A stretch of DNA of 64,000 nt from a bacterium. GTDB lineage: Bacteria; Patescibacteriota; Minisyncoccia; Minisyncoccales; CG1-02-41-26. The translations under genes and the position numbers were made by a program. Numbering within the stretch: position 1 is the stretch's first letter; each line of letters starts with the position of its first letter. Below the pieces are notes generated by a model that saw only the letters and a list, made by a program, of their open reading frames with translations, did no database searches and was not told where the DNA came from. Location of the stretch: the NCBI GenBank assembly GCA_030648255.1, contig JAUSHZ010000007.1, positions 24,404 through 88,403 of the forward strand, read 5' to 3'. This document shows, piece by piece, positions 642 to 28,231 of the stretch.

Positions 642-1277
642 TTAGCGAGAATAGAACTCAAAAATAGATGAAATATCAATATTATTAACGTCTTCTGCTG
701 TGGGCTCGGCCATAATTTTACCTTCCATTTTTTCTTTATCTAAATCCAGCCATTTTGGCTGTTGATAATTTTTTAAGGCAGAAGAAAGATTCTTAAAAAT
801 CACTTTTCCTTTTTTATTCTCCTTAAAAGAAATGGCTAATCCTTTTTTAGTAGCAAAAGATGATATATTAACTGGTTTTCCATTTACTAAAAAATAACCA
901 TGAGAAACCATCTGCTTTGCCTCTCTCCTTGATTTAGCAAAACCTAATCTAAAAACAACATTGTCTAGCCGTCTTTCCAATTCTTTTAACAAAAACAGGG
1001 TAGCATCGCCTCCTTGCCCTCTTTTTTTCAAAACAAATTTAACATGGTTTCTAAACTGGCGCTCTCCCAAACCATAGTAGTTTCTTAATTTTTGTTTTTC
1101 TTTTAATTGTTTCGCAAACTCCGAAAAAGAGCCGCTTCTTCTTTTCTTTTTAGGGCCTGGGGCATATGGCCTTCTAATAAAAGGGCAGGTGGGGGAAAAG
1201 CATTTCTCCCCCTTTAAAAAAGTTTTTTGGCCTAATCGCCTGCAAACCTTGCAATTTGTGATAGTTTTTTTCTGCAT
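642..1277 (-). CDS. rpsD: 30S ribosomal protein S4
   Basis: 211 aa with a CKVCRR Zn-ribbon-like N-terminus and an S4 domain. Sits next to rpoA as in the alpha operon. Confidence 0.9.
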   Translation of the reverse strand: MQKKTITNCKVCRRLGQKTFLKGEKCFSPTCPFIRRPYAPGPKKKRRSGSFSEFAKQLKEKQKLRNYYGLGERQFRNHVKFVLKKRGQGGDATLFLLKELERRLDNVVFRLGFAKSRREAKQMVSHGYFLVNGKPVNISSFATKKGLAISFKENKKGKVIFKNLSSALKNYQQPKWLDLDKEKMEGKIMAEPTAEDVNNIDISSIFEFYSR

Positions 1278-1489
1278 GTTAGAAGCTGTGTGAATTTTTA
1301 AATTTAATGATTTAAAAATTCATTACAGATTCTTACACCCCGTTAAGTGCGAGCGATGAGCGAGCTACTTAACTGGGGTTTGTTTGTATTCTTATCCACC
1401 CCAGTGAAGTAAAATTTGAGTACAAATTCACTTCACGGGGTTAAGCGATTGTATTTGTTCAGCCTCGGCTTCGGCTTCGCAAACAATCG
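1278..1489 (-). repeat. Intergenic modular repeat copy 1 (head A, middle I, tail 1)
   Basis: Starts right after the rpsD ATG (cat 1275-1277) and ends at the rpsK stop. The tail hairpin agcgattgt...acaatcgCTA supplies the TAG stop of rpsK. Confidence 0.9.
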
Positions 1490-1981
1490 CTAAACCCTTC
1501 TTGGTTTTCTTGGCCGACAGCCATTATGAGGAATTGGCGTTACGTCTCTTATTGATTCTATCTCCAAGCCTTGAGCGGCAATAGTTTTTAAAGCTGAATC
1601 TCTTCCGCCTCCAACCCCCTTAACAAAAACAGCAACTTCTTTAATTTTAAATTGTTCGCAAGCTAAAGCTACCGCTTGGGCAACTTTAGAGGCGGCAAAA
1701 GAAGTGCCTTTCTTTGTGCCCTTAAACCCAACATTTCCAGCAGACCTCCAAAATAAGACATTTCCTTTTTCATCAGCCAAGCTGACAATAGTATTGTTAT
1801 AGGTTGAAGAAATATAAATTCTGCCCTTTCTAAAAGAAGTTCTGGTAGAAGCAACATTCAAATCTTTTCCTAATTTCTTTTCAACTTTATCTGTTTCTTC
1901 AATAAGCTCTTTTTCTGTTTTTTGTATTACTCTTTTCTTTCCCATGTTAGTATTCGTTAATGAATGAAGTGGCTTTGCCAC
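1490..1981 (-). CDS. rpsK: 30S ribosomal protein S11 (N-terminal extension)
   Basis: 163 aa. The C-terminal half matches S11 (ISSTYNNTIVSLADEKGNVLFWRSAGNVGFKGTKKGT...). Confidence 0.9.
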   Translation of the reverse strand: MAKPLHSLTNTNMGKKRVIQKTEKELIEETDKVEKKLGKDLNVASTRTSFRKGRIYISSTYNNTIVSLADEKGNVLFWRSAGNVGFKGTKKGTSFAASKVAQAVALACEQFKIKEVAVFVKGVGGGRDSALKTIAAQGLEIESIRDVTPIPHNGCRPRKPRRV

Positions 1982-2136
1982 GAATGAATTTACGAAGACT
2001 TACACCCTGTGGAGTAGAAATTTGCTCTGCAAATTTCTGTTTTAAATTTTTAGTAAAAAATTTAAAACTACTCCACGGGGTAAATTCGTCGTAAGCTCTG
2101 GCTTCGCCTGCTGGCTTTCCCTCGCTAACGGCTCAT
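1982..2136 (-). repeat. Intergenic modular repeat copy 2 (head C, middle II, tail 2)
   Basis: Has the catgttagtattcgttaatgaatga... head and the ccctgtggagtag...ctactccacgggg middle. The tail ...cgctaacggctcaTTTA abuts the rpsM stop. Confidence 0.9.
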
Positions 2137-2526
2137 TTACTTTGGCCCTGGGGCTGTTTTTCTTCCAGAACTTACAGTTCTCTTAACATTGCCCCTTACA
2201 GTTCTTGAATTCTTTTTTGTTTTTTGCCCTCTAACAGTCAAGCCCTTTATGTGCCTGGTTCCTCGCCAACACTTAATCTCTTTTAATCTTTTAATATGGG
2301 CCACGTGCTCTCTTCTTAAGTCTCCTTCAATCTTATAACTTGCATCAATAACCTCTTTTATCTTCATTGCTTCTTGCTCGGTTAAATCTTTAGCTTTTTT
2401 CTGTGGCTCTATGTTGCATTGCTTTAAAATTCTTAAAGCCAATGGCCTGCCAATGCCAAAAACATAAGTCAAAGAAATGGCTATTTGTTTATTATCTGGA
2501 ATTGTGATGCTTGCTATTCGTGGCAT
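2137..2526 (-). CDS. rpsM: 30S ribosomal protein S13
   Basis: True start is MPRIASITIPD (cat 2524-2526). The ORF track extends 8 codons into the repeat via a TTG start (MKIHTASNM...). Confidence 0.9.
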   Translation of the reverse strand: MPRIASITIPDNKQIAISLTYVFGIGRPLALRILKQCNIEPQKKAKDLTEQEAMKIKEVIDASYKIEGDLRREHVAHIKRLKEIKCWRGTRHIKGLTVRGQKTKKNSRTVRGNVKRTVSSGRKTAPGPK

Positions 2527-2751
2527 GTTAGAAGCTGTGTGAATTTTCAAATTTAATGATTTGAAAATTCATTACAGATTCTTACACCCCGTTAAGTGCG
2601 AGCGATTAGCAAGCTACTTAACTGGGGTTTGTTTATATTTCTATCCACACCCCAGTGAAGTAGAATTTAATTTCATTAAATTCACTTCACGGGGTAAATT
2701 CCGCCAACCGCTCAAACTTCGGCTCATCGCCTCGTTTTCGCGGGGCGTCAT
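2527..2751 (-). repeat. Intergenic modular repeat copy 3 (head A, middle I variant, tail 3)
   Basis: Lies between the rpsM ATG and the rpmJ stop. The tail is ...ctcaaacttcggctcatcgcctcgttttcgcggggcgtcattta. Confidence 0.9.
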
Positions 2752-2868
2752 TTATGCGCCTTGGCGCTGTTTGTGTTTTGGAGTTTTGCAAATAACATAA
2801 ACCCTCCCCTTTCTTCTGGCGATTTTACAATCCTTACATAATTTTTTTACTGATGGTTTAACCTTCAT
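2752..2868 (-). CDS. rpmJ: 50S ribosomal protein L36 (missed by the 60-aa ORF cutoff)
   Basis: Reverse complement reads ATG AAG GTT AAA CCA TCA... and translates [38 protein letters not shown]. This is a classic L36 with C-x2-C...C-x4-H, 38 aa, in the expected infA-rpmJ-rpsM position. Confidence 0.9.
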
Positions 2869-3085
2869 GTTAGAAGCTGTGTGAATTTTTAAATTTAATG
2901 ATTTGAAAATTCATTACAGATTCTTACACCCCGTTAAGTGCGAGCGATTAGCAAGCTACTTAACTGGGGTTTGTTTGTATTTCTATCCACACCCCAGTGA
3001 AGTAGAATTTGAGTACAAATTCACTTCACGGGGTAAATTCCGCTTGCCAATCGCGCTTCGCCTGCTGGCTCGCACTCTTGGAGCG
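2869..3085 (-). repeat. Intergenic modular repeat copy 4 (head A, middle I, tail 4)
   Basis: Near-identical to copy 3 across the head and middle. The tail ...gcttcgcctgctggctcgcactcttggagcgTCAttta uses tca as the TGA stop of infA. Confidence 0.9.
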
Positions 3086-3304
3086 TCATTTAAGTCTATA
3101 AACTATTCTGCCTCTTTTATCATCAATAGAGGCCATTTCAACCAACACCTTATCGCCCAACAAAATTTTTATGCGATTAATTCTAAGCTTCCCGGCCAAA
3201 TGCGCCAAAACCTCGTTTCCATTTTCCAATTGAATTTTAAATAAAAGACTAGGCAAAGCCTCTACAACTTGGCCTCTTTCTCTTATTGTATTAATTTGTT
3301 TCAT
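3086..3304 (-). CDS. infA: Translation initiation factor IF-1
   Basis: 72 aa with S1-like IF-1 sequence (LENGNEVLAHLAGKLR...GDKVLVE...RGRIVYRLK). Confidence 0.9.
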   Translation of the reverse strand: MKQINTIRERGQVVEALPSLLFKIQLENGNEVLAHLAGKLRINRIKILLGDKVLVEMASIDDKRGRIVYRLK

Positions 3305-3358: not shown

Positions 3359-4738
3359 CTAGAAAACCATTTCTATCTTTATCTTATCTAGGCTTTTTGG
3401 CGCTCTTTTTATCCAAAAAGGCCAAAATTGCGTGTCCAGTCGTTCAATTTGGGGGTAGCTATTATTCAATAAAATCTCCATATCTTCTTTAGATTTTCCA
3501 GCTAAATCCGCAATTAAGGCTGTTTGGTCAATATCATTATAAAGCTTGGCATCTGTTTTTAAATTAAAAATCAAACTCCCTTTTTCCGTAATGCTGCCTT
3601 TTGGAACTACGCTTGTCGCTAAGCTTTGTTCGTATAATTTCTTTGAAGAAGATAGTTTTGTATCAATAAAGCTTTTGGCCATATCCTGCAAATCTGATCC
3701 CTTAAAAACAATTGTCTTAGCTTTTATTTTTGCATAACAATTAAATTCAGCGAGGTTGGCGCCAACAGCTTGAGAACAAGAGAACTCGGGCTCGCCATAG
3801 TCAACTGATTCTTGGTTAAAAGAAAATCCAGCGGTTGTTTGCTCCTTCAAGCCCGAAACAGCCATTTTTTTTAACTCCCTAATCAAGCTTTCTTGAGCAT
3901 TATCCATATCTCCTTGAGTTACTTGATCAACTTCTTTCTGACCCCCGCCGTCAATTTTTTCTCTTGATTCACCCCAAACATTATAGTATAAAGCTGTTCC
4001 TGTTAATCCTGGAATAGAAAACTTAGCAGGGGCTATATTATATTCCTCTCCCTCCTGATCAGCGACAACCTGAACCTCTGTAATGCTTGGGGTTAATTTT
4101 CCATTAAACAATGTGGCTTGGGGCAAAGAAATCTTATTTTTTGCCCGATAAACCTTTCCATCTTTTGATGATATAAATCTTGTTCCTGCTTTTAAGTTTA
4201 AGGGCATTGGGGGATTAATATTATTGTAAACAAATATAGCGCCCGTTGCCCCAGATTGTTCTGTTTCTTTTCCAGTTGACTTAAATGTTTCCCATTTCTC
4301 TACTTCTTTTTCAATTACATTTCCGGGAATAATCTTTTTTTCAAAATCGATTTGCGCTTGAGAAAAAGAAACTTGAATCTCGTCTTTAATTGTAATTGGC
4401 TCTAATAGCGGTTTCACGCTTATTTCTGCTTTTGCCTGCATCGTTAAATATAAAAAGGCTCCCCCTAAAAGCAAAATGGCTACACCAATAACTATGGGAA
4501 TTTTTAGAGCAAGTCTTGGTAAAGTAAAAGAAACTCGAATTTCTTTTTTTCCCTTGCCACGTCGGAGTTCCGCAGGAACGGAGGCGGGTCTTTCTTTTTT
4601 CACCTCCCCCTTCTTCATCCCCTTTCTTGTAGGTGATTTTTTTTGAGGCTTAGTTGAAGCTAAAACAATTGGAAATTGTTCCTCTGTTTCTTCTGCTTCT
4701 TCCTCATCTGGATTTGTTATATCAATAATTTGCTTCAT
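3359..4738 (-). CDS. Hypothetical membrane-anchored protein: acidic then basic N-terminus, one TM helix, ~380-aa extracytoplasmic domain
   Basis: 459-aa ORF. The TM segment is IPIVIGVAILLLGGAFLYL. No recognisable family. It sits inside the r-protein operon. Confidence 0.5.
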   Translation of the reverse strand: MKQIIDITNPDEEEAEETEEQFPIVLASTKPQKKSPTRKGMKKGEVKKERPASVPAELRRGKGKKEIRVSFTLPRLALKIPIVIGVAILLLGGAFLYLTMQAKAEISVKPLLEPITIKDEIQVSFSQAQIDFEKKIIPGNVIEKEVEKWETFKSTGKETEQSGATGAIFVYNNINPPMPLNLKAGTRFISSKDGKVYRAKNKISLPQATLFNGKLTPSITEVQVVADQEGEEYNIAPAKFSIPGLTGTALYYNVWGESREKIDGGGQKEVDQVTQGDMDNAQESLIRELKKMAVSGLKEQTTAGFSFNQESVDYGEPEFSCSQAVGANLAEFNCYAKIKAKTIVFKGSDLQDMAKSFIDTKLSSSKKLYEQSLATSVVPKGSITEKGSLIFNLKTDAKLYNDIDQTALIADLAGKSKEDMEILLNNSYPQIERLDTQFWPFWIKRAPKSLDKIKIEMVF

Positions 4739-4866
4739 GTTAGAAATTCTTAATTGAGTGGCGAATTTATGAGCCGTGAAATTTAGAAGTTTTTAGTCCT
4801 CCGTAAATTCAAACTTCGCCTACTGACTCGTTTTCATTAACGGATTACTTATTCTACCACAAAAAT
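4739..4866 (-). repeat. Intergenic modular repeat copy 5 (short: head B + tail only)
   Basis: Sequence catgttagaaattcttaattgagtggcgaatttatgagccgtgaaatttagaag...cgttttcattaacggattacttatt. It lacks the middle module and sits between alaS and the membrane-protein gene. Confidence 0.8.
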
Positions 4867-10712: not shown

Positions 10713-10937
10713 CTTTTTTCTCTTCACCCCCCAACAAGAAAACTTGGAGAAATGCGAGCTTGTTTGTTTTTCTTTGCCTTACGAAGAGAGATTAGAAAAT
10801 TTAGGAGCGAAACGAGGGAAAATAGTGGTAGGTCGCCGAAGGCGATCGGGCACCACGTAATTTTTCCGAAGTTTCGCGACTAAAATTTTCAAGCTCTTGA
10901 AGTTCAGCAAAGAAAAATAAATAAGCGAAGTCAGCTT

Positions 10938-12221
10938 CTACAAGTTTTCGTAGTCCCTCATTTCCATTTGGGCTTTTACTTGCCTCCAAATATCCAAAAC
11001 CACAGAAACCACAATCAATATGGCAGTTCCTCCAATTAAAAATTGAAAAGCCACCACCCCTGTTATCCCCTGAATAATTGAAGGCATTACCGCAATTAAG
11101 CTTAAAGATAAAGCGCCAATAAAAAGTGTGCGGTATAAAATCTTTTGCAAAAACTTGGCAGTTGATTCCCCCGGCCTAATGCCTGGCACAAAGCCACCCA
11201 TTTTTTGCAAGTTAGTGGCAATTGATTTTGGGTCAAAGGTAACGGCTGTGTAGAAAAAAGTAAACAGAAAAACCAAAACAAAAAATAGAGATCCGTTCAC
11301 CCAAACATTTGATAAAAATAATGAAACTGCCTTGGCGGTATTGGCAATAAAAGCGTTTCCTCCAACAGTTAAAAAATTAGCAATCATTGTAGGGAAAAGT
11401 AAAATGCTTAAAGCAAAAATAATAGGAATCACGCCAGCCGGGTTTAAATTAATTGGCAAATAAGTGGACACACCTCCATACATTTTATTGCCCCGCACTC
11501 TCTTGGCATAGTTAACTGGAATATTTCTTTTCGCTTCAGTTATTAAGACAACTCCAGCAATAATTACCAAAGCAATGATAAAAAATGCAATATATGGAAG
11601 CGCTTTTGAAGAGTCCCAACTTAAAGCAATTTGTCTGATTTGCGAAGGCGTATCAGCCACAATGCCAGCAAATATCAAAATTGAAACACCATTACCAACA
11701 CCCTTTTCAGTAATAAGTTCGCCAAGCCACATTAAAAATAACGCCCCCCCAGTAATTGTGATAATAGAGGTAATCATTTGCCACGCTGGCAAAACAGCAA
11801 TGGCTCCCTGTTTCTGAAATAGCATTAACATTGCGTAGGCCTGTAATACTGCTAAAGGCACTGTTAAAATTCTGCCATATTTATTAAACCTGGCTCTGCC
11901 TGCTTCTCCTTCTTCTTTATACATTTTTTCCAAAGCTGGAAAAATCATTGTTAAAAGCTGAATAATAATGGTTGAAGTGATATACGGGCCCAAGCCAAGC
12001 ATAACAATTGATAAATTAGAAAAAGCCCCCCCGACGAAAACATTTAAAAGCCCCAAAAGCTCGTTTTGGCTAAAAAATCTTTTTAAATTTTCTAAGTCAA
12101 TCCCTGGAATGGGAATGTTAGCGGCCAATCGTGAAACAGCCAACAAAGCCAAAACAAATAGAATTTTATTTCTTAATTGTTTGTCTTTAAATATTAATAA
12201 TAGTTTTTGAAACCACTCCAT
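10938..12221 (-). CDS. secY: Preprotein translocase subunit SecY
   Basis: 427 aa with 10 TM segments. Sits at the end of the spc operon. Confidence 0.9.
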   Translation of the reverse strand: MEWFQKLLLIFKDKQLRNKILFVLALLAVSRLAANIPIPGIDLENLKRFFSQNELLGLLNVFVGGAFSNLSIVMLGLGPYITSTIIIQLLTMIFPALEKMYKEEGEAGRARFNKYGRILTVPLAVLQAYAMLMLFQKQGAIAVLPAWQMITSIITITGGALFLMWLGELITEKGVGNGVSILIFAGIVADTPSQIRQIALSWDSSKALPYIAFFIIALVIIAGVVLITEAKRNIPVNYAKRVRGNKMYGGVSTYLPINLNPAGVIPIIFALSILLFPTMIANFLTVGGNAFIANTAKAVSLFLSNVWVNGSLFFVLVFLFTFFYTAVTFDPKSIATNLQKMGGFVPGIRPGESTAKFLQKILYRTLFIGALSLSLIAVMPSIIQGITGVVAFQFLIGGTAILIVVSVVLDIWRQVKAQMEMRDYENL

Positions 12222-12409
12222 GTTAGTAATTCTTAATTGAACGGCGAATTTATGAGCTGTGAAATTTAGAATTTCTTACACCCCGTGGAGTAGAAATTTG
12301 CTCTGCAAATTTCTATTTTAAATTTTTTACTAAAAATTTAAAATTACTCCACAGGGTAAATTCCGCTTGCCAATCGCGCTTCGATTACTCAGCACTCTTG
12401 GAGCGTCAT
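12222..12409 (-). repeat. Intergenic modular repeat copy 6 (head B, middle II, tail 4 variant)
   Basis: Sequence catgttagtaattcttaattgaacggcgaatttatgagctgtgaaatttagaa...ggagcgtcatTTA. The last tta is the rplO stop. Confidence 0.9.
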
Positions 12410-12841
12410 TTACTTTACTGTTCCTCCTGCTTTTTCTATTTTAACTTGAGCAGCTTTTGAAACCAAGCAATCCTCAATAGTAAGTGATTTAGTAAGTTCG
12501 CCATTTCCTAAAATTTTTACCAATGGAACTTTGCCTATAATTTTTCTAATTAATTTTTTATCAACTAAAACTTCCGGGGTAATTTTGTCTCCTTTTTCAA
12601 AATTCTTTTCTAAAACATTAAGATTTATAGAGGCTGTTTCTTCTCCTCTTAATTCCTGCCTGTATCCTCTTATTTTTGGATATCTTTTAATAATCTCTCT
12701 CATAAAGGGTTGCATTTTTCTCCCAGCCCTTGATTTTTGGCCTTTGCAACCCTTCCCACAGTAAGTTCCCTTCTTGCCTCCTCTGCCAATTCTTTTTCTA
12801 TCTTTTGTCTTATTATTTGGTTGTATTTCGTGAATTTGCAT
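12410..12841 (-). CDS. rplO: 50S ribosomal protein L15
   Basis: Starts MQIHEIQPN...RIGRGGKKG...GQKSRAG. Confidence 0.9.
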   Translation of the reverse strand: MQIHEIQPNNKTKDRKRIGRGGKKGTYCGKGCKGQKSRAGRKMQPFMREIIKRYPKIRGYRQELRGEETASINLNVLEKNFEKGDKITPEVLVDKKLIRKIIGKVPLVKILGNGELTKSLTIEDCLVSKAAQVKIEKAGGTVK

Positions 12842-13040
12842 GTTAGTAATTCTTAATTGAACTGCGAACGATTAGTGAGCTGTGAAATTTAGAAGTACTT
12901 ACACCCTGTGGAGTAGAAATTTGCTCTGCAAATTTCTGTTTTAAATTTTTAGTAAAAAATTTAAAACTACTCCACGGGGTAAATTCCGCCTTCCACTCAA
13001 ACTTCGGCTAATCGCCTCGTTTTCGTGGGGCGTCATTTAA
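12842..13040 (-). repeat. Intergenic modular repeat copy 7 (head B, middle II, tail 3); tail overlaps rpsE 3' end
   Basis: The tail ...cttcggctaatcgcctcgttttcgtggggcgtcattta is homologous to the copy-3 tail. Here it is read in frame as the last 11 codons of S5 ([10 protein letters not shown]). Confidence 0.85.
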
Positions 13041-13526
13041 CTGTTGTAAGGCCGCTACTGTTGCCCGGGCGATATTTAATTTATTTCTTGATCTTGACAA
13101 TAACTTTGATGATATATTCCTAATTCCAGCTAAACTGCAAATAACTCTTACCTGGCCGCCAGCCACCAACCCCCTACCTTTTGCCTGAGGCCTTAACAAA
13201 ACCCTTGCTGGGCCATACTTTGCTGTAACCTCATGGGGAATTGTTTCCTCAAACATTGGAACAGAAATTAAATTCTTCTTGGCCAACCGAGTTGATTTTT
13301 CAACAGCAATTGCCACATCAGGCCCCTTGGCCACACCTAATCCAATTTTTCCCTTTTTATTGCCAACCACCACAACTGCCCTAAACCTCATTTGCTTTCC
13401 TCCCTTTGTTACTCTTGTAACTCTGGCTAAATCTAAAACCACCGAGTCGAACTCATCTTTCGGTTTTGCTGGAAATTGACCTCTTCTTTCTCTATTAAAT
13501 TTTCCTTGTTGTTGCTGTTGTTCCAT
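13008..13526 (-). CDS. rpsE: 30S ribosomal protein S5 (C-terminus encoded by repeat tail)
   Basis: 172 aa with an S5 dsRBD-like domain. No L30 gene lies between rpsE and rplO. Confidence 0.9.
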   Translation of the reverse strand: MEQQQQQGKFNRERRGQFPAKPKDEFDSVVLDLARVTRVTKGGKQMRFRAVVVVGNKKGKIGLGVAKGPDVAIAVEKSTRLAKKNLISVPMFEETIPHEVTAKYGPARVLLRPQAKGRGLVAGGQVRVICSLAGIRNISSKLLSRSRNKLNIARATVAALQQLNDAPRKRGD

Positions 13527-13720
13527 GTTAGTAATTCTTAATTGAACGGCGAACGATTAGTGAGCTGTGAAGTTTAGAAGTACTTACACCCTGTGGAGTA
13601 GAAATTTGCTCTGCAAATTTCTGTTTTAAATTTTTTACTAAAAATTTAAAACTACTCCACGGGGTAAATTCCGCTTGCCAATCGTGCCTCACCTGCTGGC
13701 TCGCACTCTTGGAGCGTCAT
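13527..13720 (-). repeat. Intergenic modular repeat copy 8 (head B, middle II, tail 4)
   Basis: Runs from the rpsE ATG to the rplR stop (gagcgtcatTTAaaattg). Confidence 0.9.
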
Positions 13721-14065
13721 TTAAAATTGTAGCCCACCTTCTCTCGCTCCTTCAGCCAACGCTTTTATTCTACCATGATATTTAAAGCCTCCTCTATCAA
13801 AAACAACTTTTTTAATCTTTTTTTCTATTGCTAATTTAGCAATTTCCTTACCAACATTAAAAGCCTTTTCTAATTTTTTCAGTTTTTTCTCTTTTGAATC
13901 GTTTGCTGAAATAATAGTTTTGCCTTTTGTGTCGTCAATTATTTGAGCATAGATATGCTGGTTTGATTTAAATACGCAAAGCCGAGGCGCGGTTGGTGTG
14001 CCAATGACTTTTGCCCTGATTCGGCTGTGTCTTCTTGTTCTTTTTTGTTGTTTTGTCTGTTGCAT
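13721..14065 (-). CDS. rplR: 50S ribosomal protein L18
   Basis: 114 aa with L18 motifs [17 protein letters not shown]. Confidence 0.9.
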
Positions 14066-14258
14066 GTTAGTAGTCGTTAATGAATGAGTGGCGATTAGCC
14101 ACGAGTGAATTTACGAATTCTTACACCCTGTGGAGTAGAAATTTGCTCTGCAAATTTCTGTTTCAAATTTTTAGCAAAAAATTTGAAACTACACCACGGG
14201 GTAAGTCCTCCGTAAGCTCTGGCTTCGGCTAATCGCCTTGCCATCGCTAACGGATTAC
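14066..14258 (-). repeat. Intergenic modular repeat copy 9 (head C, middle II, tail 2)
   Basis: Sequence catgttagtagtcgttaatgaatgagtggcgattagccacgagtgaatttacgaa...cgctaacggattacTTA. Confidence 0.9.
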
Positions 14259-14819
14259 TTATTTTCCAGCTTTCTTGCCCTCTTTCTTGCGGACAATTTC
14301 ACCAAAATATCTAACGCCCTTGCCTTTGTATGGCTCTGGCTTTCTTAAAGCTCTTATTTTTGCTGCAAACTGGCCAACCTGTTGCTTGTCAAAACCAAAA
14401 ATATTTATAAATTGTTTTTCTATTTTTATAGACAAACCCCCTGGAATCTCCATAAAAATAGGGTGAGAAAAACCCAAGTCCAATCTTATTTTCGATTCTC
14501 CCTCCATAGCAGCCTTGTATCCAACTCCCCTAAGCTCTAATTTCTTTTCAAATCCAACTGAGACGCCATGAACATGGTTCAATAATAAAGCAGTGGTTAA
14601 CCCCCAGAGAGCAGGAATTTCTTTGCTCTCTTTTTCCTGTCTGCCGACAGGCAGGGCTGGCTTTACAACTAAAATATTACCTTGTTGTTCCACAACAATA
14701 CCAACAGGAATTTCCTGTTTTATCTCTCCCTTAGGCCCTTTAAATAAAACATTATCTTTTTCAAGAATAACTGTTACGCCTTGGGGTATTTCTATTGGTT
14801 TTTTTCCTATTCTTGACAT
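14259..14819 (-). CDS. rplF: 50S ribosomal protein L6
   Basis: True start MSRIGKKPIEIP (cat 14817-14819). The ORF track adds MKTHTISN from the repeat head. Confidence 0.9.
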   Translation of the reverse strand: MSRIGKKPIEIPQGVTVILEKDNVLFKGPKGEIKQEIPVGIVVEQQGNILVVKPALPVGRQEKESKEIPALWGLTTALLLNHVHGVSVGFEKKLELRGVGYKAAMEGESKIRLDLGFSHPIFMEIPGGLSIKIEKQFINIFGFDKQQVGQFAAKIRALRKPEPYKGKGVRYFGEIVRKKEGKKAGK

Positions 14820-15021
14820 GTTAGAAATTGTGTGAGTTTTCAAGCTATAATCTTTTTTATGGCTTGAAAACTCATTACAAGTTCTTACACCCTGTGGAGT
14901 AGAAATTTGCTCCGCAAATTTCTGTTTTAAATTTTTTACTAAAAATTTAAAACTACTCCACGGGGTAAGGTATCCGTAAGCTCGGGCTTCGCCTGCTGGC
15001 TCGCCCTCGCTAACGGCTACC
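14820..15021 (-). repeat. Intergenic modular repeat copy 10 (head D, middle II, tail 2)
   Basis: Sequence catgttagaaattgtgtgagttttcaagctataatcttttttatggcttgaaaactcattacaag...cgctaacggctaccTTA. Confidence 0.9.
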
Positions 15022-15411
15022 TTACCACACTTCCACCATTAATTCACCTCCGACTTTATCTTTTCTGGCTTGCTTATCTGTTAATAAACCATTGGTGGTT
15101 GAAACAATAGATAAGCCATAGCCACTTCTTACCTTTGAAATCTCGTCTGCTTTTTTATAAATTCTTTGCCCTGGCTTTGAAATCCTTTTAAACCCAGAGA
15201 CGGCTGGCATCTTTTCATTATATTTTAACTGTATTTTTATAATTTGAAACGGCTTTTTCCCTTTTTTCTTGCAATCCAAAATAAGCCCCTCTGCTTTTAA
15301 AATTTCAGCAATTGAGTATCTTAGTTTTGAAAAAGGAACATCGGTTGTTTTATGGAAAACAACTTGAGCGTTCCTTATTCTATTAAACATGTCTGTTATT
15401 GGATCGGTCAT
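15022..15411 (-). CDS. rpsH: 30S ribosomal protein S8
   Basis: True start MTDPITDMFNRIRNA. The start context here is ttctaaT-ATG rather than ttctaaC-ATG. Confidence 0.9.
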   Translation of the reverse strand: MTDPITDMFNRIRNAQVVFHKTTDVPFSKLRYSIAEILKAEGLILDCKKKGKKPFQIIKIQLKYNEKMPAVSGFKRISKPGQRIYKKADEISKVRSGYGLSIVSTTNGLLTDKQARKDKVGGELMVEVW

Positions 15412-15612
15412 ATTAGAAGTTGTGTGAGTTTTCAAGCTATAATTTTTTTTATGGCTTGAAAACTCATTACAAATTCTTATACCCCGTGGAGTAGAAATTT
15501 GCTCTGCAAATTTCTGTTTTAAATTTTTTACTAAAAATTTAAAACTACTCCACAGGGTAAGTCCTCCGTAAGCTCTGGCTCGGCTGTTGCCTCGCCATAG
15601 CTAACGGATTAC
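15412..15612 (-). repeat. Intergenic modular repeat copy 11 (head D, middle II, tail 2)
   Basis: Very close to copy 10. Ends ...agctaacggattacTTA at the rpsN stop. Confidence 0.9.
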
Positions 15613-15798
15613 TTACCAAGACGACTTCTTAATCCCGGGTATTTCTCCTTTACTTGCCATTTCCCTAAAACAAATTCTGCACAAACCAAAGTCCCTTATA
15701 AATCCCCTGTACCTTCCGCACTTAAAACATCGCCTCACTATTCTTGAAGAAAACTTTGGTTTTCGGTTTGATTGATTAATTAATGATTTTTTTGCCAT
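15613..15798 (-). CDS. rpsN: 30S ribosomal protein S14, Zn-ribbon type
   Basis: 61 aa with C-x2-C...C-x2-C. Confidence 0.9.
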
Positions 15799-16020
15799 GT
15801 TAGTGATTCTTAATTGAACGGCGAGCGATTAGCGAGCTGTGAAATTTAGAATGACTTACACCCCGTTAAGTGCGAGCGATTAGCGAGCTACTTAACTGGG
15901 GTTTCGTTGTATTCTTACCCCACCCCAGTGAAGTAGAATTTGAGTACAAATTCACTTCACGGGGTAAGGCTCTGCTACCGCTCAACCTTCGCCTTCGGCT
16001 CGGCTTCACGGGCAGAAGCC
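15799..16020 (-). repeat. Intergenic modular repeat copy 12 (head B, middle I, tail 3-like); tail overlaps rplE 3' end
   Basis: The tail ccgctcaaccttcgccttcggctcggcttcacgggcagaagcc is homologous to the tail-3 family. It encodes the L5 C-terminal residues ...ASAREAEPKAKVER*. Confidence 0.8.
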
Positions 16021-16634
16021 TTAAATGGAAACCCCAGCAATCTTAATAATGCAGCGCCTTCTTCCTTTGTTTTGGCTGTTGTTGAAATTGTTACTTCTAA
16101 TCCAAAAATGCCTTTCTCTTTTTCAACTTTCAATTCAGGAAATGGAACATACTCTTTAAATCCAACTGTAATATCTCCTTGGCTTGTCATAGATTTCTCT
16201 TCAACGCCCCTAAAGTCTCTAGACCTTGGCAAAACAACCCAAATCAACTTCTCTAAAAAATCATACATTCTTTTCTTTCTTAAGGTGCAGCTGGCTCCAA
16301 CCGCCATACCTTCTCTTAGCTTGAAAGCAGCAATTGATTTTTTTGCTTTATTTAGAGATGGTTTTTGCCCGGTAATAGCGGCTATTGATTGAGCAATATA
16401 TTCTTCCGCTTTTTCTCTCTCACTGGCGCTTTTTCCAATAACCATTTTGCCAAAACCGCAATTAACAACAATCTTCTTTATTTTTGGCACAGCCATAACA
16501 GAACTATACCCGAATTTCTTCGTCATTTCAGGAATAACTATTTTATTGTATTGCTCTTGTAATTTCATATTTTTCATGAAGCTGTCGAAGCTGTTGAAAC
16601 CGAGCTTCTGGAAGCCCTTGAAGCTCGGTTTCAA
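15975..16634 (-). CDS. rplE: 50S ribosomal protein L5 (with N- and C-terminal extensions)
   Basis: 219 aa. The core is NYSSVMAVPKIKKIVVNCGFG. Confidence 0.85.
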   Translation of the reverse strand: MKPSFKGFQKLGFNSFDSFMKNMKLQEQYNKIVIPEMTKKFGYSSVMAVPKIKKIVVNCGFGKMVIGKSASEREKAEEYIAQSIAAITGQKPSLNKAKKSIAAFKLREGMAVGASCTLRKKRMYDFLEKLIWVVLPRSRDFRGVEEKSMTSQGDITVGFKEYVPFPELKVEKEKGIFGLEVTISTTAKTKEEGAALLRLLGFPFKASAREAEPKAKVER

Positions 16635-16655
16635 CAGCTTCAGGCTCCATAGCTT

Positions 16656-16961
16656 TTAAATATCAGCTTTGCATTTCTTGCAAATTCTAACTTTATTTTC
16701 TCCTTCTACCTTATAGCCAATTCTTGTGGGTTTATTGCACTTAGGACATAAAGCCTGCGCTTTGGAGGCATTCATTGGAAAAGAAATTTCCACAATTTGC
16801 CCTTTTTCTCCTTGTTTTTTTGGCTTTTTATGCGTCTTTTTTATATTAACTCCTTCAACCAAAATCATTTCCTTAGATGGAAAGCTTTTTAAAACCTTGG
16901 CTTTCTTGCCTTTATCCTTGCCAGCGATTATTAAAACATTGTCTCCTTTTTTGATTCGCAT
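16656..16961 (-). CDS. rplX: 50S ribosomal protein L24
   Basis: True start MRIKKGDNVLIIAGKDKGK (KOW domain). Cat is at 16959-16961. Confidence 0.9.
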   Translation of the reverse strand: MRIKKGDNVLIIAGKDKGKKAKVLKSFPSKEMILVEGVNIKKTHKKPKKQGEKGQIVEISFPMNASKAQALCPKCNKPTRIGYKVEGENKVRICKKCKADI

Positions 16962-17177
16962 GTTAGAAATTGTGTGAGTTTTCAAGCTATAATCTTTTTT
17001 ATGGCTTGAAAACTCATTACAAGTTCTTACACCCTGTTAAGTGCGAGCGATGAGCGAGCTACTTAACTGGGGTTTGTTTATATTATTCTCATACCCCAGT
17101 GAAGTAGAATTTGATTACAAATTCACTTCACGGGGTTAAGCGATTGTAATGCTCGGCTATCGCCTCGCAGACAATCG
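16962..17177 (-). repeat. Intergenic modular repeat copy 13 (head D, middle I, tail 1)
   Basis: The tail hairpin agcgattgt...acaatcgCTA supplies the TAG stop of rplN. This matches copy 1 and its use at rpsK. Confidence 0.9.
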
Positions 17178-17546
17178 CTAAACAACATCTTTAGCCATGG
17201 TTATTATGGCATCAAATCCTTTTTCTTTTAATTCTCGAGGAACCGGCCCTAAAATTCTATTTCCTTTAGGCTGTTTCTGATCATTTAAAATACAGCAAGC
17301 ATTGTCATCAAATCGCAAATAGGAACCGTCTTTTCTTCTAAACGGACTCTTTTGCCTTACAATAACGGCCTTAACAACCTGATGTTCCTTAACATCGCGC
17401 CTTGGCTCTGCTTTTTTAACCGCTGCAACAATTATGTCGCCAATTCTTGCATATTTCTTTCTTGTGCCTCCAGGCACCCCAAAACACTGAACTATCTTAG
17501 CTCCAGTATTATCTGCCACATTTAACATTGTTCTTAACTGAATCAT
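17178..17546 (-). CDS. rplN: 50S ribosomal protein L14
   Basis: 122 aa starting MIQLRTMLNVADNTGAK. Confidence 0.9.
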   Translation of the reverse strand: MIQLRTMLNVADNTGAKIVQCFGVPGGTRKKYARIGDIIVAAVKKAEPRRDVKEHQVVKAVIVRQKSPFRRKDGSYLRFDDNACCILNDQKQPKGNRILGPVPRELKEKGFDAIITMAKDVV

Positions 17547-17550
17547 GGGT

Positions 17551-17966: not shown

Positions 17967-17967
17967 A

Positions 17968-18375
17968 CTATTTTTTTACAAATTTAACTTTAATTGGCAA
18001 TTTATCTGAGGCCTTGCCAAACGCCTCAACAGCAATCTTTTCATCCACTCCATCAATTTCAAATATCACTCTACCAGGTTTTATCGGAAAAACATAATGG
18101 TCAACAGCCCCCTTGCCTCCACCCATTCCAACTTCTCCGCCTTTTTGCGTAATTGGTTTTTGGGGGAATATCCTAATCCATAGCTTACCCTTTCTTTTCA
18201 TTGCTTTTGTAATAGCTTTTCTAGCTGATTCCATTTGGTTGGCTGTAATCCATTTTGTTCCCATTGATTTCAATCCAAAAGAACCATAGGAAACTTCTGT
18301 TCCTCTTGTATCATTTCCTTTGCTTGTGCCCTTATGCCATTTCCTATGTTTCATTTTTCTTGGTTGTGTCAACAT
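17968..18375 (-). CDS. rplP: 50S ribosomal protein L16
   Basis: True start MLTQPRKMKHRKWHKG (cat 18373-18375). Confidence 0.9.
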   Translation of the reverse strand: MLTQPRKMKHRKWHKGTSKGNDTRGTEVSYGSFGLKSMGTKWITANQMESARKAITKAMKRKGKLWIRIFPQKPITQKGGEVGMGGGKGAVDHYVFPIKPGRVIFEIDGVDEKIAVEAFGKASDKLPIKVKFVKK

Positions 18376-18566
18376 GTTAGAAGCTGTGTGAATTTTCAAA
18401 TTTAATGATTTGAAAATTCATTACAGATTCTTACACCCCGTGGAGTAGAAATTTGCTCTGCAAATTTCTGTTTTAAATTTTTAGTAAAAAATTTAAAACT
18501 ACTCCACAGGGTAAATTCCGCTTGCCAATCACGCTCGCCTGCTGGCTCGCGCTCTTGGAGCGTCAT
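18376..18566 (-). repeat. Intergenic modular repeat copy 14 (head A, middle II, tail 4)
   Basis: Runs from the rplP ATG to the rpsC stop (ggagcgtcatTTAattaaag). It carries a 3-nt deletion relative to copies 4 and 8 in the tail. Confidence 0.9.
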
Positions 18567-19226
18567 TTAATTAAAGCGTTCTCCCTTATACATCCAAACC
18601 TTAACGCCAATAACCCCATAAGTGCAGTGTGCCTCGCATGAGCCATATTCAACTATGGCTCTTATTGTTTGAAGCGGAAGTCGCCCATCTTTTAACCATT
18701 CTCTTCTGGAAATTTCAACTCCATTTAACCTACCTGATACCTCAACCTTCACGCCTTTTATTTCTTTTTGCTCAGCTGTTTTGCTTATTGCCATTTTCAA
18801 AACTCTTCTAAACGGCACTTGCTTTTCGATTTGGCCAGCCATCCATTGAGCTGTTAAGCTGGCTGAAAGCCATGGGTTTCTTATTTCAATAATTTCTATT
18901 TTAATGCTGTTTTTATCTGTTTTTATCTTCCCCTTTACTTTTGATATTGCTTTTTCAATTCCCATTTTCAAATCCTCAACTCCTTTGCCCCCCCTGCCGA
19001 TAATCAAAGCGGGTCTGGAAGTTTTAATAATAATTTTTAAGGCAGCGGATGTTCTCTCTATCTCTACTTCCTGAATAATACCCGCGGGTAGCTTCTTAGT
19101 GATAAACTGCCTAATTATAAAATCCTCCTCTAAGTAAACAGGAAAATTGTTCTTATAAAAGCCTCTTGAAAGCCAGTCTTTCATTTCTCTTATCTTAAAA
19201 GATTTTGGGTTGACTTTATGGCTCAT
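18567..19226 (-). CDS. rpsC: 30S ribosomal protein S3
   Basis: 219 aa with KH and S3-C domains. Confidence 0.9.
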   Translation of the reverse strand: MSHKVNPKSFKIREMKDWLSRGFYKNNFPVYLEEDFIIRQFITKKLPAGIIQEVEIERTSAALKIIIKTSRPALIIGRGGKGVEDLKMGIEKAISKVKGKIKTDKNSIKIEIIEIRNPWLSASLTAQWMAGQIEKQVPFRRVLKMAISKTAEQKEIKGVKVEVSGRLNGVEISRREWLKDGRLPLQTIRAIVEYGSCEAHCTYGVIGVKVWMYKGERFN

Positions 19227-19576
19227 ACTTTTGATTTATCTTGTTTAAAAATATCTAAATTTAAAGTAATATTAGAAGTTTTCTTTTCTATTCTACAAGC
19301 CCTGCCCCTAGCTCTGGCCCTCCATCTTTTAAGGGTTCTGCCCTCATCAACTTTAATTAAGGAAATAAACAAATCTTTTTCTTCTAATTTAAAATTGTTT
19401 TTAGCGTTGGCCACTGCTGAATCCAAAAGCTTTTTTAAAGGCAAGGCTCCTTTTTTAATGCAAAATCCTAAAGATGCTTGGGCTTTCCCAGCAGATTTTC
19501 CTCTAACCATATCAGCCACCAAGCGAACTTTTCTGGGTGATATTCTTAAATTGTTTAATTTTGCTATAACTTGCAT
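19223..19576 (-). CDS. rplV: 50S ribosomal protein L22
   Basis: True start MQVIAKLNNLRISPRK (cat 19574-19576). Confidence 0.9.
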   Translation of the reverse strand: MQVIAKLNNLRISPRKVRLVADMVRGKSAGKAQASLGFCIKKGALPLKKLLDSAVANAKNNFKLEEKDLFISLIKVDEGRTLKRWRARARGRACRIEKKTSNITLNLDIFKQDKSKV

Positions 19577-19776
19577 GTTAGAAATTGTGTGAGTTTTCAA
19601 GCTATATTTCCTTATGGCTTGAAAACTCATTACAAGTTCTTACACCCCGTGGAGTAGAAATTTGCTCCGCAAATTTCTGTTTTAAATTTTTAGTAAAAAA
19701 TTTAAAACTACTCCACAGGGTAAATTCCGCTTGCCAATCGCGCTTCGCCTGCTGGCTCGCGCTCTTGGAGCGTCAT
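19577..19776 (-). repeat. Intergenic modular repeat copy 15 (head D, middle II, tail 4)
   Basis: Ends ...gctcttggagcgtcatTTA at the rpsS stop. Confidence 0.9.
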
Positions 19777-20103
19777 TTATTTCTTTACTGGTACTGGTGC
19801 TTTAGGTTGGGTTTGAGTTTGCACTTTTGATTCTTGCTCTCTTTGCATTTTTCCGCCATGCCTGCCAAACTTCGTGGTTGGGGAAAATTCTCCTAATTTA
19901 TGGCCAACCATATCTTCTGAAACATAAACGGGAATATGCTCTTTTCCATTATGGACTCCAAAAGTAAAGCCAACCATTTCTGGTGTAACAGAACACTCGC
20001 GAGACCATGTCTTAATAACTTTTTTCTCGCCAGCTTTCTGGTTGATGACTTTTTTTATTAATCTTTCGTCCACAAAAGGACCCTTTTTTAGTGATCGTGG
20101 CAT
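19777..20103 (-). CDS. rpsS: 30S ribosomal protein S19
   Basis: Starts [12 protein letters not shown]..., a classic S19. Confidence 0.9.
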
Positions 20104-22014: not shown

Positions 22015-22641
22015 CTATTTACTCTTTTTCTTATTTACTATTGAACTTGTAATCTCTACAAGCGTTCCTCGCCTGCCAGGGATGGCGCCTTTTACTGCAA
22101 TCAAATTATTTTCCAAATCAATTTTAACAATTTTTAAATTTCTCACCGAAATTCGCACAAATCCCATATGGCCTGGCATTCTCTTGCCCGGGAAAACTCT
22201 ACCCGGGTCAGTAGCACCAACCGAACCAATTGTTCTTACTTCATGCTTTGTGCCATGGGTTGTGTGATGCCCCCTAAAATTATATCTCTTAACACCTCCT
22301 TGAAACCCTTTGCCCTTGCTAATACCTGAAATTTTAACTTTATCTCCTTCTTGAAAAACAGAGGCATTAATCTCCTGCCCTAATTCATAATTCTTAATTC
22401 CTGATTCCTGAGGCCTGAACTCTTTTAAATATCTATACTCTTTGCCTTTCTCGGTTTTCTTAATTTTTCTAGCTTTTTTTTCAAAACCAATCTGAACCGA
22501 TTCATAGCCATCTTTGCTTTCCTTGGTCTTATTTTGTAAAACAACACAAGGCCCAGCTGTAATCAAAGTTACTGGGACTGCATCTCCCTTTTCATTAAAT
22601 ATTTGAGTCATCTCTAATTTTTTTCCAAGAATAAATGACAT
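22015..22641 (-). CDS. rplC: 50S ribosomal protein L3
   Basis: 208 aa with GKGFQGGVKRYNF. Confidence 0.9.
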   Translation of the reverse strand: MSFILGKKLEMTQIFNEKGDAVPVTLITAGPCVVLQNKTKESKDGYESVQIGFEKKARKIKKTEKGKEYRYLKEFRPQESGIKNYELGQEINASVFQEGDKVKISGISKGKGFQGGVKRYNFRGHHTTHGTKHEVRTIGSVGATDPGRVFPGKRMPGHMGFVRISVRNLKIVKIDLENNLIAVKGAIPGRRGTLVEITSSIVNKKKSK

Positions 22642-22941
22642 GTTAGAAGCTGTGTGAATTTTTAAATTTAATGATTTAAAAATTCATTACAGATTCTTAC
22701 ACCCTGTGAAGTAAAATTTGAGTACAAATTTTAATTTTAAATTTTTTACTAAAAATTTAAAATTACTTCACGGGGTTAATAATCCGTAAGCTCAAGCTTC
22801 GCCTGCTGGCTCGCTCTCGCTAACGAATTATTAAAAACACGAGGCATTAACTCCCCGCATTTTTGTTAAAAACTCAAGGGTTAAATTCTTCCCACTTTCA
22901 AGGGTTAAACTAATTAAGTTTTACCTTGAACTCTATATTAA
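22642..22941 (-). repeat. Intergenic modular repeat copy 16 (head A, chimeric middle, tail 2 + ~110-bp unique extension)
   Basis: The middle is a hybrid: ccctgtgaagtaaaatttgagtacaaatt (the M-I loop) fused to ...ttttttactaaaaatttaaaattacttcacgggg (the M-II 3' half). The tail is followed by caagggttaaa(t/c)t direct repeats before the rpsJ stop. Confidence 0.8.
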
Positions 22942-27088: not shown

Positions 27089-27550
27089 TTATCGGGCTAG
27101 ATAAGCAAAAGCTTTGTTGGCTTCGGCCATTTTATGGACATTGATTTTCTTTTTCACTGCCTCGCCCTCCCCCTTGCTTGCCTGCATAATTTCTTCAGCT
27201 AATCTGCTGGCCATATCTTTGCCTTTTTTCTTTTGGGCAGATGAAATAAGCCATCTCATGGCCAAGCTCAAAGCCCGTTTGTCTTTAACCTCTCTGGGCA
27301 CCTGATAAGTAGCTCCCCCAACACGCTGTGGCCTCACTTCAACTTTTGGAGCAGCTTCTTCTAAAGCTTTTTCAAAAATATCCATTGGCTCTTGTTTGGT
27401 TTGCTCTTTGACAATATCAAAAGCGCTATAAACAATTTTTTGGGCAATGCTTTTTTTGCCTTGAGTCATTACAGTGTTTATAAATTTTGCAACAATAACG
27501 CTGTCATAAGATGAATCAGGCAATATTTCTCTTGTTTTAAATTTAGCCAT
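27089..27550 (-). CDS. rpsG: 30S ribosomal protein S7
   Basis: 153-aa S7 family protein. Confidence 0.9.
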   Translation of the reverse strand: MAKFKTREILPDSSYDSVIVAKFINTVMTQGKKSIAQKIVYSAFDIVKEQTKQEPMDIFEKALEEAAPKVEVRPQRVGGATYQVPREVKDKRALSLAMRWLISSAQKKKGKDMASRLAEEIMQASKGEGEAVKKKINVHKMAEANKAFAYLAR

Positions 27551-27814
27551 GTTAGTAATCGTTAATGAATGAGTGGCGATTAGCCACGAGTGAATTTACG
27601 AGGACTTACACCCTGTGAAGTAAGATTTGAGGTCTCTTCCAAAAAGTGTATTCTCTTAAACTTTTAACTATTTTTCTCTCGCATCAATTGTTAATAATCG
27701 TACCCTCAAATCTTAATTTTAAATTTTTTACTAAAAATTTAAAATTACTTCACGGGGTAAATTCCGCCAACCGCTCAAACTTCGGCTCATCGCCTCGTTT
27801 TTGCTGGGCGTCAT
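27551..27814 (-). repeat. Intergenic modular repeat copy 17 (head C, middle with ~75-bp nested insertion, tail 3)
   Basis: The apical loop of the middle hairpin is replaced by the stem-loop gatttgaggtctc...gtaccctcaaatc. The tail ...ctcgtttttgctgggcgtcatTTA supplies the TAA stop of rpsL. Confidence 0.85.
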
Positions 27815-28231
27815 TTAACTTTTAACTCTTTTTGCTCCGTATTTAGATCTTCCATTTTTTCTGCCAGCCACCCCTGTGGTATCTAAATGTCCTCTAACAA
27901 TATGATATCTCACGCCGGGTAAATCTTTAACCCTTCCCCCTCTCACCAAAACCATTGAGTGCTCTTGTAGGTTGTGGCCTTCCCCGCCAATATAAGCAGA
28001 AACTTCTTTGCCATTTGATAGCTTAACCCTGGCTACTTTTCGTAAAGCCGAGTTTGGTTTTTTTGGAGTAACTGTGAAAACCTTAGTGCAAATTCCTCTC
28101 TTAAATGGAGACGCGTAGTCCTGTGGCCTGTTTTTTAAAACATTAAAACCATAAGTCAAAGCTCTCATCTTGATTGTTTTTTTCACTGGCTTTCTTGGCT
28201 TTTTAATTAATTGATGAATTGTTGGACACAT
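27815..28231 (-). CDS. rpsL: 30S ribosomal protein S12
   Basis: 138 aa with [11 protein letters not shown], a classic S12. Confidence 0.95.

Follow-up and report, generated by a model that had tools for sequence, protein, structure and literature searches.

Two ribosomal-protein genes, rpsE (S5) and rplE (L5), end inside sequence that recurs elsewhere in the same gene cluster, which raises the question of whether their C-termini were made by repeat DNA or are native. The analysis covered a window of 64,000 nucleotides, that is, the whole stretch of DNA under study; its minus strand carries the str/S10/spc/alpha ribosomal-protein cluster of a member of Candidatus Paceibacterota (Patescibacteria), and homologues of the window proteins are named Candidatus Pacebacteria or Patescibacteria. 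A preliminary description of the sequence had claimed that insertion or recombination of an element had remodelled both C-termini and that the head of the element gives in-frame TTG starts upstream of six further genes.

A modular repeat between stop and start codons

Gene order on the minus strand was rpsL and rpsG near 27-28 kb, tuf, rpsJ through rplO, secY, adk, map, infA, rpmJ, rpsM, rpsK, rpsD and rpoA; a gene for L30 was not found in the ribosomal-protein cluster. Throughout the window, no Shine-Dalgarno motif was visible upstream of the start codons, where the sequence is A/T-rich.

Inspection of the intergenic regions revealed a modular repeat composed of tail, core and head, present in the window as 16 full copies and one partial copy, all in sense orientation to the genes; its recurrence is far beyond chance. 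A full copy runs from the stop codon of one gene to the ATG of the next and fills the gap with approximately 190-230 nt. The tail (approximately 57-60 nt) occurs in four sequence types (T1-T4), the core as a three-way junction (A) or as two hairpins (B), and the head in three types (H1/H1b, H2 and H3), with tail, core and head types combining freely in many pairings. In the predicted folds, the three hairpin domains abut with few unpaired bases at most between them, the stop codon of the preceding gene falls within the base pairs that open the tail, and the A of the following AUG takes part in the final pair of the head. Predicted folding energies ranged from -71 to -100 kcal/mol with z-scores from -8.75 to -11.1. 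Inverted arms of 13-14 bp (ACCCYGTGGAGTAG / CTACTCCACRGGGT) were found in the core only. The copies, together with the two gene ends, are as follows.

1275..1492, minus strand: copy between rpsK and rpsD; tail T4, core B, head H1 with TTG changed to TTT
1943..2139, minus strand: copy between rpsM and rpsK; T2-like tail, core A, head H3
2524..2754, minus strand: copy between rpmJ and rpsM; non-coding T3 tail at 2695-2754, head H1 with in-frame TTG at 2548-2550
2866..3092, minus strand: copy between infA and rpmJ; the infA stop is the second-frame TGA (3086-3088) of the tail start UAAAUGA
4736..4850, minus strand: partial, core-less copy; T2-like tail fused to H2-like head, 3' of a -10-like TGGTAGAAT box and upstream of a 459-aa ORF
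12219..12412, minus strand: copy between rplO and secY; T1 variant tail, core A, head H2
12839..13039, minus strand: copy between rpsE and rplO; tail T3 at 12980-13039, core A at 12903-12979, head H2 at 12839-12902 ending in the rplO ATG; MFE -70.8 kcal/mol, z -8.75
13008..13039, minus strand: last 10 codons of rpsE (S5) with the stop TAG, covering the T3 5' arm and the apical loop GAUUA, which holds the TAG
13524..13723, minus strand: copy between rplR and rpsE; tail T1, core A, head H2, ending at the rpsE ATG
14063..14261, minus strand: copy between rplF and rplR; tail T2, core A, head H3
14817..15024, minus strand: copy between rpsH and rplF; tail T2', core A, head H1b, in-frame TTG at 14841-14843
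15409..15615, minus strand: copy between rpsN and rpsH; head closing pair altered on both sides (UAU/AUA), TTG at 15433-15435
15796..16023, minus strand: copy between rplE and rpsN; tail at 15965-16023, core B at 15860-15964, head H2 ending in the rpsN ATG
15975..16023, minus strand: end of rplE (L5) in the tail; native Lys AAG at 16020-16022, then 14 codons (ASAREAEPKAKVER) and TAG at 15975-15977
16959..17180, minus strand: copy between rplN and rplX; tail T4 from the TAG stop, core B, head H1b, TTG at 16983-16985
18373..18569, minus strand: copy between rpsC and rplP; tail T1, core A, head H1, TTG at 18397-18399; MFE -86.8 kcal/mol, z -11.1
19574..19779, minus strand: copy between rpsS and rplV; tail T1, core A, head H1b, TTG at 19598-19600
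22639..22834, minus strand: copy upstream of rplC; tail approximately 108 nt past the rpsJ stop, behind a conserved terminator-like hairpin
27548..27817, minus strand: copy between rpsL and rpsG; third T3 tail at 27758-27817, non-coding, its TAA being the rpsL stop

An ATG-started ORF was present inside just 25 of 93 copies, with lengths of 3-54 codons and differing frames, on which grounds an element-encoded small protein was rejected. A scan for promoters and terminators revealed nothing systematic on the sense strand inside the elements.

Several other features of the window were recorded along with the repeat. The 78-nt spacer between rplX and rplE is filled by a near-perfect 31-bp hairpin (16580-16650, minus strand; -51.9 kcal/mol, z -8.6), unrelated in sequence to the tail/core/head family, the 3' arm of which reaches the rplE AUG; the same spacer measures only 4 nt in the related loci L001 and L005, and the rplE ORF is over-long (219 aa) because of this hairpin. 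A structured region of approximately 110 nt after rpsJ (22780-22941, minus strand) closes with a hairpin resembling a terminator (GCGGGGAG...CCUCGUG) and a run of five U residues; L001 and L005 retain this region, the window element is inserted just behind it, and it may be an attenuator or leader in the S10 operon. An inverted repeat at 10758-10926, with 65-nt arms that are 72% complementary and 39 nt apart, sits between secY and a small lipoprotein-like ORF. At 3086-3092 (minus strand), the final Lys codon of infA may also be common to gene and repeat.

The C-termini of S5 and L5 and the TTG frames

The end of rpsE, which the preliminary description had placed at 13008-13040 of the minus strand, proved exact in coordinates and translation (TTAAATGACGCCCCACGAAAACGAGGCGATTAG). 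The gene closes with ...CAG TTA AAT GAC GCC CCA CGA AAA CGA GGC GAT TAG, which predicts the C-terminal peptide ATVAALQQLNDAPR with the tail residues NDAPRKRGD. Homology to the non-coding tail after rpmJ, also claimed there, was recovered as 55 identities in 60 positions (91.7%) between the T3 tails at 12980-13039 and 2695-2754, the five differences comprising three unpaired bases and one compensatory pair, from A-U to G-C.

Four loci from relatives, with approximately 81-85% nucleotide identity to the window, were used for comparison, L001 being the closest relative among them. L001 and L005 (approximately 83-85% identity) have no element between rpsE and rplO and are free of it at most junctions, where spacers of 1-40 nt are found. 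Their S5 proteins end in ...LKIKQYADKRPKTTT and ...LKTNANPRNTTATQK, and these ends are encoded out of frame by the first 32-38 nt of rplO, the two genes overlapping at L001 10563-10594 and L005 10497-10534. In the window, this overlap is gone, the element stands at the rplO ATG, and S5 differs from ...QQL onward. The hypervariable S5 tails of many Patescibacteria (YAD.../HA...KTKT-like) appear to exist because the conserved first codons of rplO are read out of frame, and the S5 residues lost in the window are, on this sequence comparison, themselves an overlap-encoded, non-conserved tail.

Among 121 aligned S5 sequences (the query and its 120 best homologues), NDA[PS]R was found in five; the two of these whose DNA was examined, L004 and L065, have a T3-type tail at the junction. 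S5 ends in ...LKVNDASRKQGEAKV in L004 (tail-derived: ...VNDASRKQGEAKV) and in ...KINDAPRTPKHGEV in L065/L066, where the tail-derived end of L065 is ...INDAPRTPKHGEV; an end of the ...VNDASR type is an alternative tail-derived form among genomes. Judged by eye, the changes from T3 of the window to that of L004 appear to be compensatory (CCCAC/GUGG versus CUCGC/GCGA), and the S5 tail of L065 looks closer to the non-coding rplO-secY tail of L065 than to the S5 tail of the window.

For rplE, the end at 15975-16025 (minus strand, FKASAREAEPKAKVER*) was likewise exact, and its position in the tail (15965-16023) was upheld; the earlier count of about 16 tail-encoded codons has to be corrected to 14 past the native ...GFPFK. 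The gene reads ...TTT AAG | GCT TCT ... CGG TAG, the bar marking entry into the 14 codons, in a tail of canonical fold. A BLAST comparison of this tail with T1-T4 gave no match; its fold is the same as that of the other tails, and close relatives of it are found in L054 and L065. Without the element, L5 ends in GFPFKK* or GFPFKKS* (L001, L005), and 89 of 121 aligned L5 sequences end 0-3 residues past GFPFK. A 14-residue extension of the tail type (ASARE...KxER) was seen in 5 of the 121. The ends in other loci are FPFKGLGR* (L065), FPFKNTLNLT* (L004, reading into a core remnant) and ...ASTREAETKVKAER* (L054).

Why these two genes and not the others are extended is explained by the reading frame at the stop codons built into the tail. 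Most tails begin with UAAAUGA, UAAGUAA or UAAAUAA and thus carry stops in two of the three frames; 12 upstream genes in the window end at the first UAA or UAG of the tail, and infA ends at the second-frame UGA. The rpsE frame enters its tail in the sole open, third frame and runs for 10 codons to the UAG in the apical loop. The rplE tail starts with UAAGGC, which lacks the second-frame stop; entry is in the second frame, with 14 codons up to a UAG in the 3' arm, and the UAA of the tail itself (16021-16023) is out of frame. We infer from the open reading frames alone that translation passes through both tails.

When S5 and L5 were compared with their element-free relatives, the same C-terminal residues were not found there, L001 and L005 carrying different ends for both proteins; the proposal that the element had remodelled these C-termini is thus supported. 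Very probably, the ends were rewritten by the repeat through an accident of frame at its built-in stop codons. The ancestral state would be the rpsE/rplO overlap, and an element placed at the rplO ATG would have removed the native S5 end, since with insertion at that site the overlapping end is necessarily lost. The left joins lie at short matches between the gene and the 5' end of the tail, TTAAA for rpsE and TTTAAG for rplE. These matches suggest, from a handful of junctions, that the element was copied from junction to junction by microhomology-guided recombination or template switching and not by cut-and-paste transposition. The new S5 and L5 peptides would be by-products, with their sequence set by tail folding and by the other tails of the same genome.

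Three other accounts of the two ends were weighed. If the ends were native, the tail after rpmJ would be a captured rpsE 3' end and the direction of homology reversed. An unusual S5 end alone proves nothing, the S5 C-terminal tails being variable in this group; against this, the T3 fold with its G-A loops is common to dozens of non-coding tails before unrelated genes, the element-free relatives lack these residues and overlap rplO instead, and few homologues have S5 or L5 ends derived from a tail. From the relatives and the homologue surveys it follows that the ends are not native, and we consider the reversed direction highly improbable. An assembly or frameshift error, by which the true stops would be the UAA codons of the tails and the extensions absent, might be suspected from the fact that the exact window S5 sequence is without a record in the protein collection. 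We give this very little credence, as conserved residues (...ATVAALQQL and ...LLGFPFK) anchor the frame up to the very start of the tail and the same out-of-frame layout occurs in independent NCBI, JGI and ENA assemblies (L004, L065/L066, L054, P0001, P0106, P0121, P0128, P0129 and P0169).

The third account is that selection maintains the tail-encoded peptides because they serve S5 and L5 as functional C-terminal extensions. In five protein clusters at 90% identity, the L5 extension can still be recognised as the conserved pattern ASARE[AT]E[PST].[AIV]K[VA]ER, and C-terminal extensions of ribosomal proteins can stabilise rRNA (PMC9297842). The conserved E, K and R residues, however, coincide with bases of the tail helices and of the invariant GA, GAA and GAG loops, and between the window and L054 all nine substitutions fall at base-paired positions, with five of the seven affected pairs staying paired and two breaking in the fold of the window. 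The S5 extensions vary in length and sequence between genomes, and the S5 end they replaced was itself out-of-frame rplO. Selection on the peptides is therefore improbable, and remodelling by frame accident is retained as the explanation of both ends.

At the other end of the element, an in-frame TTG eight codons 5' of the ATG was confirmed for rpsM, rplF, rpsH, rplX, rplP and rplV. That these frames are over-extensions, as had been proposed, agrees with the element-free orthologues, which use the same ATG with the upstream stop only 1-40 nt away. In heads H1/H1b, the apical hairpin has as its 3' arm the sequence TTG AAA A(C/T)T CAC ACA ... TAA CAT G, and TTG becomes TTT where the head hairpin covaries (rpsD and rplC heads). 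The six apparent N-terminal extensions are ORF-calling artefacts of one hairpin arm. Public gene calls that start inside the element include S8 of L065 with 137 aa versus 129 (5649-6062), L24 of L065 with 109 aa versus 101 (4198-4527) and L14 of L005 with 140 aa versus 122 (6918-7340); the two L065 calls are 8 codons over-long, consistent with the head TTG. A tail-derived C-terminus is carried by a public call that NCBI names S5 (P0003).

Fold conservation and distribution of the element

The tail has a fixed design, ((((..((((((((..((((..(((....)))...))))..))))..))))..)))). In 62 tails, 80% of the cells were paired versus 58% in shuffles, and 288 double-change cells were counted versus 103 ± 8; none of 500 shuffles reached the observed values. 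The internal loops are invariantly GA/GA and GA/GAA, seen 93 and 43 times, and their bases are 82% purine on the sense strand. These strand-specific G-A loops suggest a single-stranded role. A K-turn reading of the GA/GAA loop was rejected on visual inspection, since the loop lacks the second sheared A and carries its extra base on the incorrect side.

Predicted folding energy was equal for sense and antisense strands (-74.3 versus -75.0 kcal/mol) and, with no difference, was discarded as a proof of an RNA role. Interior G.U pairs exceeded A.C mismatches barely on the sense strand (84 versus 69), and this asymmetry was set aside as uninformative. Hairpin loops and core also occur flipped, as expected of DNA palindromes. 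The closing pair of the head was G-C in 86 cases, G.U in five, A-U in two and A.C in none; there is weak support for sense-strand pairing of the head reaching the AUG. All heads whose 3' end was located by BLAST adjoin an ATG, and a start-codon search that did not require ATG found TAAY-ATG within 110 nt past the core/head junction in 117 of 124 cases. The core is more variable. In L004 (4664-4879 and 9789-10002), its inner hairpin has grown to 135-140 nt, and in L065 (3583-3700 and 8038-8110) one hairpin, ACCCCCTCTTTTT...AAAAAGAGGGGGT, makes up the whole core; the variants have nothing but the closing ACCC...GGGT helix in common, the interior varying freely.

For a wider search, the exact pattern of core, head and ATG was used. 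Many copies were found on four contigs of STD1_120 (GCA_028718785.1; one GTDB species genome), and single copies in three more Patescibacteria genomes, one labelled Saccharibacteria and one Gribaldobacteria. The pattern also occurred in 42 metagenome stretches and once, as a likely chance match, in a Methanolobus genome; the viral contigs scanned with it contained no copies. Apart from ribosomal-protein genes, the element precedes rpoA, rpoC, nusA, frr, ssb, rnpA, yidC, secG, murG, pyrG, dnaJ and genes for proton pyrophosphatase and pilB-type and TraG-type ATPases, and some copies lie directly 3' of a TATAAT-like box. Because so many non-ribosomal genes follow it, a ribosomal-protein autoregulatory leader was rejected as its general role. 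At L060 1513-5310, the gene following a copy encodes a 1266-aa TraG/VirB4-type ATPase with a LAGLIDADG-domain intein.

Occupancy varies among the window, L001, L004, L005 and L065. The window and L004 carry the same tail types at orthologous junctions; a copy between the S17 and L14 genes is present in L001 and L005 and lacking in the window; and at the rpsN-rpsH junction the element is also found in L004, L005, L065 and L016 and partly in L001. Informative sites in 21 genes gave the quartet topology (window, L001 | L004, L005), supported by 96 amino-acid sites versus 32-34 for the alternatives. The element-rich genomes are therefore not sisters, each having an element-poor sister, which ruled out a single gain in the common ancestor. 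Repeated gain, repeated precise loss or between-lineage recombination is needed to reconcile occupancy with topology. A further difference in gene content is a hicB/hicA toxin-antitoxin pair between rplC and rplD in the S10 operon of L001 (2329-2794).

Relation to known repeats and meaning

A search of the whole window against Rfam 15 at the gathering score returned tRNA and DUF3800-V RNA only, with no match to the element, and a permissive search of 12200-19850 gave just sub-threshold matches to microRNA-type hairpins. The DUF3800-V match (48983-49080, plus strand; 41.9 bits, gathering score 37.4) lies beside a DUF3800 protein gene (49116-49784, minus strand), on the opposite strand and at the 3' side of the gene. 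Literature searches found no description of the tail/core/head element, and the family appears to be undescribed.

Repeat-derived protein ends are known in other bacteria. QMITE1 and QMITE2 of Coxiella burnetii overlap the 3' ends of genes and give the last residues and the stop, with overlaps of 42-50 bp and, in one strain, a 33-residue extension of EnhC (PMC5896051). The likeness is that a repeat with secondary structure touches or runs into functional genes at their 3' ends; in S5 and L5, too, the terminal codons and the stop lie in repeat-homologous sequence and repeat-free orthologues end differently. QMITEs, however, have terminal inverted repeats and occur in varied positions and orientations, whereas the window element is strictly sense, runs exactly from stop to start and affects universal ribosomal proteins. 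What is new here is apparently this stop-to-start, strand-specific, structured cassette. Overlapping or overprinted gene ends offer another parallel, the element-free S5 tail likewise being incidental coding, which in the window is replaced by the repeat. The Rickettsia palindromic elements (RPE) of Ogata et al. 2000 reportedly become coding sequence without destroying the protein. RPEs lie inside ORFs and are translated through in frame, whereas the window element lies between genes and has part of one module translated, translation ending there; a host protein continuing in frame beyond the repeat was not found.

Intergenic hairpin repeats such as Neisseria Correia, enterobacterial ERIC/IRU and REP/BIME are co-transcribed and can alter mRNA processing or stability. 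The window element resembles them in being abundant, intergenic and hairpin-forming; they occur in both orientations and at variable gene distances, whereas it is sense-only, and we know of none reported with an exact stop-to-start span or repeated tandem G-A loops. The REP/BIME repeats that RAYT transposases mobilise are imperfect palindromes, 20-40 bp long and marked by GTAG or CGTC, in genomes that encode a RAYT. The window element has GTAG...CTAC in its core arms, beside the inner hairpins, but is a composite of approximately 200 nt. RNase III sites between cistrons are known from phage T7. In selectively processed, stabilised operons, intercistronic stem-loops define processed ends and transcript stability (PMC8219983, PMC10311766), and processing sites are described in archaeal ribosomal-protein operons (PMC5499594). 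If the element acts as RNA, such intercistronic hairpins would most likely be the best analogy, with the difference that they are single and not mobile repeats, whereas the window element is a three-domain cassette.

In the manner of a MITE, the element is small and non-coding, exists in many copies and varies in presence from one relative to the next. Terminal inverted repeats of the whole element were not found, the tail 5' end (TAAATGACGC or TAAGTAATCC) not being complementary to the head 3' end (...TTCTAACATG). At 10 junctions compared with and without the element, no target-site duplication was seen and the element replaces the whole stop-to-ATG spacer; T1 and T3 tails start with TAA-ATG, readable as a repeated ATG, and T2 and T4 lack it. 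None of 20 window ORFs scanned against Pfam was a transposase. Single-strand transposition of the IS200/IS605 type, considered for the end hairpins and strand specificity of the element, was rejected, as it leaves the replacement of native spacers unexplained and no transposase was seen among those ORFs.

Whether the element is nothing but a selfish DNA palindrome comparable to a MITE or REP, its siting from stop to start reflecting insertion tolerance or targeting, has to be weighed against a function in the mRNA. Its patchy occupancy in both directions among close relatives, the flipping of core and hairpin loops, equally good folding of both strands without a clear G.U excess and the free combination of modules all fit selfish DNA, a reading that is quite possible without being the one we would expect. 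It sits less easily with the fact that every copy is sense and ends exactly at ATG with no native spacer left on either side, with the purine bias of the tail loops on the sense strand, and with the missing inverted repeats and target-site duplications; by eye, at the junction between the S14 and S8 genes in window and L004, the tail also seems better kept than the flanking genes of approximately 81% identity. The element would be co-transcribed and at least tolerated within mRNA, and it may act in processing, stability or start-codon presentation. A genuine RNA function of the cassette we place between doubtful and evenly balanced. More specifically, and only tentatively, we propose a portable stop-to-start mRNA adaptor, widespread in Patescibacteria, recognised by a protein or nuclease and spreading by recombination. 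The tail of such an adaptor would be a rod of 4-bp helices split by three conserved tandem G-A loops, the core a sequence-conserved closing helix round a freely variable interior, and the head a hairpin with the A of AUG in its last base pair.

For annotation, the consequence is that public gene calls carry tail-derived C-termini and head-derived false N-termini. The termini of even universally conserved ribosomal proteins can be rewritten by repeat DNA. If the adaptor proposal is true, the element organises how the mRNAs of highly expressed genes are processed, how stable they are or how their start codons are selected, and a functional RNA, rather than junk DNA leaving scars, would have given rise to the S5 and L5 extensions as a side effect. 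The element is a compact candidate for the organisation of operon mRNA in Shine-Dalgarno-poor, genome-reduced bacteria.
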